64,000 nucleotides of DNA from Escherichia coli (lineage in GTDB: Bacteria > Pseudomonadota > Gammaproteobacteria > Enterobacterales > Enterobacteriaceae): NCBI RefSeq assembly GCF_003018115.1, contig NZ_CP027457.1; one strand, 5' to 3'. The position numbers are program-made. Positions 25,901 to 28,900 of this stretch are shown piece after piece. How positions within the stretch are numbered: position 1 is the stretch's first letter; every line of letters starts with the position of its first letter.

Positions 25901-28900
25901 TGTGCGGAAATGGTTCGCCAGCGCTGGAATCCGCATCCTGAACCAACCTGGGTATGCTGCGTTCCTTCATTAAGGCACCTCGACCTGGTTCCTGATTTTG
26001 CCCGGCGACTGGCGGTGAAACTTGGCTTACCTTTTATTGATGCCATTGAAAAAGTCGTGGACAATCCACCGCAGAAAATGCAGCAAAACCGTTTTCACCA
26101 GTGTCAAAATCTCGACGGGGCGTTTGTGATTACCCCTCCTTTGATGCCAGGTCCGGCGTTGCTGGTTGACGATATCGTGGATTCTGCATGGACGCTGACA
26201 GTTCTGACAGCACTGTTACGCCAGGCAGGTTGCCCGACGGTTTATCCTCTTGCCCTTGCTTCTACCTCGGTAAAAAATTGATGAATCTTTCAGCCAATGC
26301 ACAAGCAACTCTCCTGCTAACCAGCGATTTTTCTCGCGCGGCGGCGAGTGAGTATAAACCTCTTAGTAATAGTGAATGGGGGAAGTTTGCATTATGGCTG
26401 AAGCACCAACGTATCAGTCCCGCCGATCTTCTGGTGGCGCAACCGCAAGAGAAACTTACAGGCTGGAGCGATCCGCGTATTTCTCAGGAGCGTATTCTTG
26501 GCTTGCTGGCGCGCGGTCATAGTCTGGCGTTGGCGGTAGATAAGTGGCAACGCGCCGGTTTATGGATCATAACCCGCGGAGATGCTGATTATCCCGTTCG
26601 CTTGAAAAACCGATTGCGAACGGATGCACCTCCCGTTTTATTTGGCTGCGGGAATAAAGCATTACTGCAAGCGGAAGGTATGGCGATTGTTGGCTCGCGA
26701 GATGCTCCGACTGACGATTTGCGCTATACCCAACAACTGGCAGCGAAACTGGCCCAACAGGGGATTTGCGTTATCTCTGGTGGTGCGCGAGGTATTGATG
26801 AATGTGCAATGGCGTCAGCACTGGAGGCCGGGGGAACTGCCGTTGGCGTATTAGCTGATAGCTTGTTAAAAACGAGCACGTTAGTGAAATGGCGTGAAGG
26901 GCTTATAGCAGGCAACCTGGTGTTGATTTCGCCGTTTTACCCAGAGGTACGTTTCACCGTCGGCAATGCGATGGCGCGAAATAAATATATTTATTGCCTT
27001 GCTGAAAGCGCAATGGTTGTACGTGCGGGAATGACCGGTGGAACGATAACCGGGGCGATGGAGGCATTAAAACATCAGTGGCTGCCTGTGCAGGTTAAAC
27101 CAAATCAGGATATGCAATCAGCCAATTCACGATTAGTAGAAAATGGGGCGTCATGGAGTACTGAACAGGCTGAGAATGTGACGTTCAGACTGCCAGACGT
27201 TCCTGGGCTGATGTATGACAGAGCACTCCGTAACGCTCAACCAGAACTGTTTTCGCTGCATGAAGATGACGCAAATTACGCAGTAATGCCCGCGTATACG
27301 CCTGTCGATTTTTATCAACTCTTTGTGGCGGAACTGGCGATCCTTGCAAAGGAATCGATAAGTATTGAAAGGCTGGCGTCTTGTACTGGTTTAACCATCG
27401 AACAAATTAGTGTGTGGCTGAACCGCGCAGAAGAAGAGGGAAGGGTTATCCGATTGGGCGAAGGTCATTATCAGTTCAGGTAATAAAACAGGTGCCGCGT
27501 CTGGTTGTGTGCAGCACCTGTTTGAACCTTACCCCTTCATCCACATTCGAATGCCGTCGAGGAACATCTGGGTTGCCATCATCACCAGAATCAATCCCAT
27601 CAGGCGTTCAAGTGCGTTCACCCCTTTCTCGCCCAGCAGACGTAAAAATAGCGAAGACTGTAGCAGGATGACAAAGGTGCCGCCCCAGGCCAGCAGCAGA
27701 GCAATCACCAGATGTCCCATCTGATTCGGGTACTGATGAGACAACAACATCAGCGTGGCGAGAATAGTTGGCCCGGCGACCAGCGGAATTGCCAGCGGCA
27801 CGATAAATGGCTCTTCACCTGCCGGAAGCCCGCTGCTATTTCCTGAAGCGCTGGGGAAAATCATCTTAATGGCGATCAGAAACAGAATGATGCCGCCAGA
27901 AATGGAGACGGTTTCCGCACGCAGGCTGAGAAATGCCAGAATTTTCTCACCCGCAAACAGGAACACCAGCATCACCAGGAGAGCAATAAGCAACTCTCGC
28001 ACCATGATTGCCCGCCGTCTTTTCGGTTCAGTATGTTTCAGTACGGACATGAAAATAGGTAGGTTTCCGAGCGGATCCATAATCAGGATCAATAAAACTG
28101 CTGCAGAAATGATTTCATTCATAACTCAAATTCCCTGATAATTGCCGCGGACTTTCTGCGTGCTAACAAAGCAGGATAAGTCGCATTACTGATGGCTTCG
28201 CTATCATTGATTAATTTCACTTGCGACTTTGGCTGCTTTTTGTATGGTGAAAGATGTGCCAAGAGGAGACCGGCACATTTATACAGCACACATCTTTGCA
28301 GGAAAAAACGCTTATGAAAAATGTTGGTTTTATCGGCTGGCGCGGTATGGTCGGCTCCGTTCTCATGCAACGCATGGTTGAAGAGCGCGACTTCGACGCC
28401 ATTCGCCCTGTCTTCTTTTCTACTTCTCAGCTTGGTCAGGCTGCGCCGTCTTTTGGCGGAACCACTGGCACACTTCAGGATGCCTTTGATCTGGAGGCGC
28501 TAAAGGCCCTCGATATCATTGTGACCTGTCAGGGCGGCGATTATACCAACGAAATCTATCCAAAGCTTCGTGAAAGCGGATGGCAAGGTTACTGGATTGA
28601 CGCAGCATCGTCTCTGCGCATGAAAGATGACGCCATCATCATTCTTGACCCCGTCAATCAGGACGTCATTACCGACGGATTAAATAATGGCATCAGGACT
28701 TTTGTTGGCGGTAACTGTACCGTAAGCCTGATGTTGATGTCGTTGGGTGGTTTATTCGCCAATGATCTTGTTGATTGGGTGTCCGTTGCAACCTACCAGG
28801 CCGCTTCCGGCGGTGGTGCGCGACATATGCGTGAGTTATTAACCCAGATGGGCCATCTGTATGGCCATGTGGCAGATGAACTCGCGACCCCGTCCTCTGC

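Follow-up and report, generated by a model that had tools for sequence, protein, structure and literature searches.

The open reading frame (ORF) at positions 26281–27483 (+ strand) of a 64,000-nucleotide stretch of Escherichia coli DNA (NCBI RefSeq assembly GCF_003018115.1, contig NZ_CP027457.1; the whole stretch is referred to here as the window) lies directly downstream of a helicase gene with which it shares one base. We conclude with high confidence that it encodes PsyrA, also called RqlI, the protein antitoxin of the two-gene PsyrTA (RqlHI) toxin–antitoxin (TA) and candidate anti-phage module. Both points are already known: psyrA has been described, and the correct antitoxin hypothesis has been published. 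The initial annotation of the window recognized an accessory DprA paralog joined to a helicase and raised the possibility of an antitoxin role. It did not name the system, nor did it see the C-terminal phosphoribosyltransferase (PRTase) domain of PsyrT, which in the orthologue is the toxic part of the protein and the site of antitoxin binding.

Identity and domains of PsyrT and PsyrA

The features of the two genes, with the evidence on which each is based, are as follows.

24185–26281, + strand: psyrT/rqlH, a 698-aa RecQ-like helicase fused to a C-terminal PRTase (PADLOC, NCBIfam, identity to CFT073)
24242–25234, + strand: PsyrT helicase core, DEAD plus Helicase_C, approximately aa 20–350 (Pfam; RecQ structures 1OYW and 4TMU at ~1e-53)
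25508–25636, + strand: PsyrT RecQ zinc-binding motif, aa 442–484 (Pfam RecQ_Zn_bind, E = 0.0015)
25709–26278, + strand: PsyrT PRTase domain, aa 509–698, the toxic domain (DIVD663 numbering; weak Pfam Pribosyltran match at 627–683)
26279–26283, + strand: TGATG stop/start overlap, presumed site of translational coupling (sequence)
26281–27483, + strand: psyrA/rqlI, 400-aa DprA-like antitoxin (full-length PADLOC PsyrA match; 98% identical to CFT073 RqlI)
26281–26553, + strand: PsyrA N-terminal helical (SAM-like) domain, aa 1–91 (AlphaFold2 model; Foldseek alignments to the SAM-plus-Rossmann proteins 3UQZ and 8ZVA)
26545–27159, + strand: PsyrA DprA/SLOG Rossmann-fold domain, aa 89–293 (Pfam PF02481, 2.2e-51, and PF18306)
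27193–27300, + strand: PsyrA linker of low confidence and variable length, aa 305–340 (predicted local distance difference test score, pLDDT, <50)
27310–27480, + strand: PsyrA C-terminal winged helix-turn-helix (wHTH), aa 344–400 (AlphaFold2 pLDDT 83–94, H-H-H-E-E topology)

The PADLOC PsyrA profile (PDLC03927) matches the product from end to end (1.3e-202, 671 bits; residues 1–400 against profile positions 1–397 of 398). The ShosA profiles score 94.5 and 31.7 bits and cover the core only (residues 85–266 for the 94-bit match). The upstream product gives 1062 bits with PADLOC PsyrT (residues 3–697 against positions 5–687 of 689) and exceeds the cut-off of the NCBIfam recQ_fam model (256 versus 219.8 bits). 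Its phosphoribosyl pyrophosphate (PRPP) loop, LLVDDIVDSAWT, includes D663, encoded at 26171–26173, and was retained in all eight homologues inspected. PsyrA is identical to RqlI of strain CFT073 at 392 of 400 positions (98%; 8 substitutions) and PsyrT to its RqlH at 681 of 698 (98%; 17 substitutions), the CFT073 pair occupies the same slot between gntU and yhgN, and the numbering of published constructs (RqlI 1–400, 1–320 and 1–250; RqlH DIVD663) fits the window proteins exactly. A sequence search of the PDB yielded no PsyrA or PsyrT entry, only relatives among DprA, ShosA and RecQ proteins. Membership in the ShosTA system was considered and ruled out by the weak, partial ShosA match and the helicase-fused toxin; no ShosT model appeared among the 25 best PADLOC matches.

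Published work on the orthologue provides the functional evidence. For the 98%-identical RqlI/RqlH pair of the extraintestinal pathogenic E. coli (ExPEC) strains F11, CFT073 and 536, the DprA-like partner has been reported to act as the antitoxin, as the initial annotation had suspected, and RT-PCR placed both genes in one operon, separate from the neighbouring genes (PMC4670107). RqlH by itself is toxic in MG1655. When rqlI is deleted with the helicase gene in place, in strains that include CFT073, cells induce the SOS response, filament and show a growth defect; they also mutate at a higher rate, grow poorly under microaerobic conditions and no longer persist in the gut, and all of these effects depend on RqlH (PMC4670107). 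Genotoxicity requires the PRTase domain, being abolished by deletion of residues 509–690 or by D663A, and RqlH, though not RqlH 1–509, co-immunoprecipitates with RqlI (PMC4670107). Removal of 84 or 129 residues from the N-terminus inactivates RqlI, and the DprA/Rossmann region is also required; RqlI 1–320, from which the wHTH is missing, is fully active, showing that the wHTH is dispensable for neutralisation (PMC4670107). Two of the three experiments proposed in the initial annotation, co-purification and deletion beside an intact helicase gene, thus have published answers in the orthologue, both in favour of an antitoxin. Independently, psyrTA was validated as a TA pair (Sberro 2013), and PsyrTA was counted among phage-defensive TA systems in a study in which a ΔpsyrA construct could not be transformed or obtained (Millman et al. 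preprint; Millman 2022). Our search of the later literature found no mechanism beyond the results of Russell & Mulvey, Sberro, Millman and the work on strain NILS69.

The junction between the two genes (...AAAAATTGATGAAT, also written TTGATGAAT) reads TGATG, with the psyrT TGA at 26279–26281 and the psyrA ATG at 26281–26283, so the single shared base was read correctly at the outset. From this ATG the ORF spans 401 codons including the stop and specifies 400 residues, among which all the motifs first quoted were recovered (DADYPVRLKNRLRTDAPPVLFGCG, IVGSRDAPTDD and VISGGARGIDECAMASALEAGG). The stoichiometric co-expression of the two proteins put forward in the initial annotation is a conjecture drawn from the overlap. 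The RefSeq/PGAP coding sequence begins at a different codon, giving 431 residues from an ATG at 26188 and a 94-nt overlap with the helicase gene; a mechanical ORF list likewise takes the start back to this position. Homologues with 48–72% identity, however, all start with MNL/MNV...AQATLLLTSYFS. The N-terminus MNLS..AQATLLLT is conserved among them, with M1, N2, A7, Q8 and L11–T14 invariant in a 40-sequence alignment. Since the homologue N-termini are conserved, the PADLOC profile aligns from residue 1, and the RqlI used experimentally has 400 residues (PMC4670107), we take 26281, the start chosen in the initial annotation, to be the true one. Sequence comparison therefore indicates that RefSeq places the psyrA start 31 codons too far upstream. 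The stretch added by the early start lies at 26188–26280 in the window, and likewise at L001 5189–5281 and L003 2897–2989 (− strand).

The three-domain DprA architecture ascribed to PsyrA stood up in outline and was corrected in one detail. Between them, Pfam, AlphaFold2 and Foldseek recovered all three regions. The motif YP..PP.LF.G had been misplaced: it falls where the Rossmann fold begins, inside the Pfam DprA domain, and does not end a separate N-terminal region. Pfam assigns residues 89–293 to DNA_processg_A (PF02481; 2.2e-51) and residues 135–273 to SLOG LDcluster4 (5.7e-11). An AlphaFold2 model built from the 40-sequence alignment (mean pLDDT 75.8) consists of a helical region (1–91), an alpha/beta Rossmann domain (94–300), a disordered linker (305–340) and a winged helix (344–400). 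Homologues range from 391 to 450 residues, and the variation is located in the linker. When the model was compared with the PDB by Foldseek, the first match was the three-domain DprA 3MAJ (7e-14, 415 aligned columns), followed by ShosA 8ZVA (6e-13) and Streptococcus pneumoniae DprA 3UQZ. SLOG proteins of the molybdenum cofactor (Moco) carrier and LOG types rank lower in the list, and these matches account for the 'MoCo-binding domain' label in the 2015 paper on RqlI.

The gntU–yhgN locus and distant homologous loci

In the window, which is E. coli chromosome, gntR-gntK-gntU are followed by the two + strand ORFs, then by yhgN (− strand), asd, glgB, glgX and glgC. The pair forms part of an accessory segment that replaces the K-12 spacer exactly from stop codon to stop codon (the K-12 counterpart lies at 3666–3721 of locus L002).

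24046–27528, + strand: whole accessory segment, 3483 bp in place of the 56-bp gntU–yhgN spacer of K-12 (MG1655)
24057–24084, + strand: terminator-like hairpin after gntU, with a 12-bp stem and T-rich tail (−16.6 kcal/mol, z = −4.8)
24085–24184, + strand: region upstream of psyrT, presumed promoter, with an AGGAG Shine-Dalgarno sequence at 24174–24178
27486–27523, strand not assigned: hairpin between the convergent psyrA and yhgN, a likely bidirectional terminator (−18.9 kcal/mol, z = −2.95)

Comparison of the cassette borders with K-12 disclosed no flanking direct repeats or target-site duplication, and no integrase, transposase or other mobility genes. The cassette is carried by 1641 of 5426 complete E. 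coli genomes (~30%), always on the chromosome. A truncated PsyrA (P0012; 227 aa, 99% identical, 57% coverage) was recorded in 74 Shigella sonnei sequences, which is consistent with the insertion sequence (IS)-disrupted rqlH-rqlI locus of S. sonnei 53G (PMC4670107).

To place the pair in a wider context, we inspected twelve loci carrying distant homologues. In eleven, a gene for a 695–714-aa helicase-PRTase lies directly upstream of the psyrA homologue, in the same order as in the window, and ten of these eleven pairs have a 1-nt or 4-nt stop/start overlap. In four of the twelve, psyrT-psyrA is situated between hsdS and hsdR of a type I restriction-modification (R-M) operon, in a conserved five-gene arrangement: Marinobacter, Vibrio vulnificus, a Shewanella-like contig and Pseudomaricurvus (L005 1–8514, L008 1–8587, L009 1–9105 and L015 1–9108). 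The sizes of hsdM (713 aa) and hsdR (1080–1081 aa) are nearly identical across the four. This embedding is a defence context and supports the assignment of PsyrTA as a TA and candidate defence module. The layout resembles that of prrC inside EcoprrI, and placement between hsdS and hsdR suggests that toxin could be released once phage anti-restriction proteins or single-stranded DNA (ssDNA) intermediates disable restriction. A narrow literature search, which returned only irrelevant papers, found none on this arrangement. The enterobacterial allele at gntU|yhgN forms its own clade, with ~50% identity to all others. One could speculate that PsyrTA is at root a restriction-linked guard, like PrrC in EcoprrI, and that the gntU|yhgN allele is a detached, partly domesticated derivative serving DNA-stress control during microaerobic growth in the gut rather than phage defence; we consider this scenario unlikely, if worth stating.

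The twelfth locus, in Xenorhabdus bovienii (L014 4469–5802), contains an orphan psyrA. Approximately the last 10 psyrT codons remain upstream of it (tblastn, 90% identity, residues 689–698), and an HNH/ScoMcrA-like gene follows. Loss of the toxin with retention of the antitoxin is what a TA pair predicts. In Citrobacter werkmanii (L007 1905–5206), the pair fills the same gntU|yhgN slot as window positions 24185–27483. GntU, YhgN and Asd are 95–98% identical between the two species, in comparison with 74% for PsyrT and 63% for PsyrA; the cassette, and above all its antitoxin, appears either to have diverged far faster than its flanks or to have been swapped for a divergent allele. An Alcaligenaceae genome and Providencia stuartii (L010 1–5730; L012 1–5850) have the pair directly downstream of divergent uvrA/ssb, a neighbourhood that could mark another recurrent site of insertion or reflect a functional connection with ssDNA metabolism.

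Alternative explanations and a proposed mechanism

Given its fold, PsyrA might be a functional second DprA that binds incoming or gapped ssDNA, loads RecA, and takes part in recombination or transformation together with the RecQ-like helicase. The three domains are present, and the related antitoxin ShosA binds ssDNA and RecA. In addition, R140 (39 of 40 sequences) and R233 (40 of 40) align with R52 and R143 of Helicobacter pylori DprA, two of the three arginines (R52, R143 and R170) that contact ssDNA in that protein (PMC12961424). The third arginine, however, is missing from PsyrA, no transformation was detected in ExPEC by the authors who examined it, and the known mutant phenotype is wholly RqlH-dependent (PMC4670107). 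E. coli already possesses a core smf, present in 5422 of the 5426 complete genomes, which bears out the description of psyrA as a second, accessory copy. That gene resides outside the window, at the smf-smg locus beside def rather than between gntU and yhgN, and a tblastn search of the window with Smf matched the psyrA ORF only, at 32% identity. The similarity of PsyrA to K-12 Smf is confined to 156 core residues (32% identity), and its scores fall below the NCBIfam cut-offs for both TIGR00732 (104.1 versus 191.15 bits) and NF008007 (80.6 versus 495 bits). Canonical DprA identity was ruled out by these scores and the Smf comparison, and a role as a working second DprA is extremely improbable: PsyrA is a distant DprA paralogue that very probably does not serve as a further recombination mediator. 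Autoregulation of the operon is common among type II antitoxins, and the C-terminal wHTH is confidently predicted in the AlphaFold2 model. Both observations would suit a PsyrA that acts mainly as a transcriptional repressor, controlling psyrT expression through the wHTH instead of binding PsyrT. Against this, when RqlH is driven by a heterologous promoter, RqlI 1–320, which has no wHTH, neutralises it at least as well as the full-length protein does, and co-immunoprecipitation shows direct binding to the PRTase domain (PMC4670107). We give repression as the principal function next to no credence.

A more substantial alternative was put forward in PMC4670107. Here RqlI and RqlH would cooperate in a complex for DNA maintenance, with a part in housekeeping or in fitness within a niche (such as microaerobic growth or gut persistence), and would serve neither defence nor addiction; RqlI, as the regulatory subunit, would steer the helicase-PRTase towards a beneficial DNA reaction, and toxicity would be only a by-product of imbalance. 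Expression of rqlHI is conserved and correlated between strains, the chromosomal context is fixed, the occupied slot in C. werkmanii suggests long residence, two of the distant loci adjoin uvrA-ssb, and no anti-phage phenotype was seen in NILS69. Yet the cassette is missing from 70% of E. coli genomes, K-12 included, and the defects of ΔrqlI mutants in growth and in vivo survival are rescued when rqlH is deleted as well (PMC4670107), which argues that those defects are due to unopposed RqlH and not to loss of a shared beneficial function. The E. coli–Citrobacter identities (63–74% for cassette proteins versus 95–98% for the flanks) fit conflict-driven evolution. Embedding in type I R-M operons at 4 of 12 loci and the phage protection conferred by a PsyrTA homologue (Millman et al.) also count against a cooperative complex, an explanation that we regard as improbable.

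Several observations nonetheless weigh against the assignment of PsyrTA as a TA and candidate anti-phage module. In E. coli NILS69, the native PsyrTA conferred no detectable protection against the phages tested, whether assessed by deleting it or by expressing it in MG1655, and its only effect was a growth defect. ΔrqlI mutants remain viable, with a conditional defect that affects microaerobic growth and gut colonisation (PMC4670107), which indicates that the pair is no classical lethal TA system, and Russell & Mulvey themselves favoured the cooperative DNA-processing model (PMC4670107). The position of the third ssDNA-contacting arginine is occupied by M260 in PsyrA and by Glu in 21 of the 40 homologues. 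Finally, a sigma-70 scan of positions 23950–27650 found no consensus match, including upstream of psyrT.

With these points in mind, we propose the following mechanism for PsyrTA. Its first part is established in the window or in the 98%-identical orthologue. The two genes have overlapping stop and start codons and belong to one operon. When unopposed, the PRTase domain of PsyrT, with its PRPP loop and D663, is genotoxic: it induces the SOS response, makes cells filament and increases mutation. PsyrA suppresses this toxicity by binding PsyrT via the PRTase domain, an activity for which the N-terminal helical and DprA/Rossmann domains are required and the C-terminal winged helix is not. Coupling of translation through the TGATG overlap would ensure that antitoxin is produced whenever toxin is. 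By analogy with ShosTA, phage infection may relieve the inhibition, either because phage ssDNA or replication intermediates titrate the DprA-like domain or because a labile antitoxin is lost after host shut-off. The freed PRTase could then disturb nucleotide or DNA metabolism and cause abortive infection; the helicase portion may have a role in DNA targeting or sensing.

The psyrTA of the window is a further copy of a system that is already published and occurs in ~30% of E. coli genomes, and by itself it matters little. Its value is for annotation: the RefSeq names 'DNA-processing protein DprA' and 'RecQ family helicase' hide a TA and candidate defence module, and the antitoxin appears there with a start that is 31 codons too early. 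The only additions to the literature consulted are this start mis-call, the frequent embedding in type I R-M operons, and the Xenorhabdus orphan antitoxin with its toxin remnant.

Relation to known systems

The closest counterparts are RqlI and RqlH of ExPEC F11, CFT073 and 536, which have the same locus, gene order and lengths (400 and 698 aa) as the window pair. Compared with RqlHI/PsyrTA as described in the literature (Sberro 2013; Russell & Mulvey 2015; Millman 2022), the pair has the same D663 and nothing of substance differs. With canonical DprA/Smf, PsyrA shares the three-domain layout seen in Rhodopseudomonas palustris DprA 3MAJ, the PF02481 Rossmann core, the YP...PP.LF.G and GGARGID motifs, and two of three ssDNA-binding arginines. 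It differs in being accessory (30% of strains) rather than core, in always being partnered with PsyrT, and in its known function, which is toxin neutralisation.

ShosTA also pairs a DprA-like antitoxin (SAM-like plus Rossmann) with a PRTase toxin. Its toxin causes DNA damage and filamentation, and ShosA (8ZVA) is the second-best structural match to PsyrA. ShosT, in contrast, is a stand-alone PRTase, whereas the PRTase of PsyrT is fused to a RecQ-like helicase, and ShosA lacks the C-terminal winged helix that PsyrA has. The two antitoxins also differ in mode of action: ShosA does not bind ShosT directly and acts via ssDNA and RecA, whereas RqlI co-precipitates with the PRTase domain of its toxin; ssDNA recognition has been shown for ShosA alone. 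The RqlH of Mycobacterium smegmatis has the same helicase-PRTase architecture as PsyrT and no RqlI partner. F11 RqlH is 41% identical to MSMEG_5935, and the DprA-like partner is almost always missing in Gram-positive bacteria (PMC4670107). The RqlI-type antitoxin is accordingly a Gram-negative addition.

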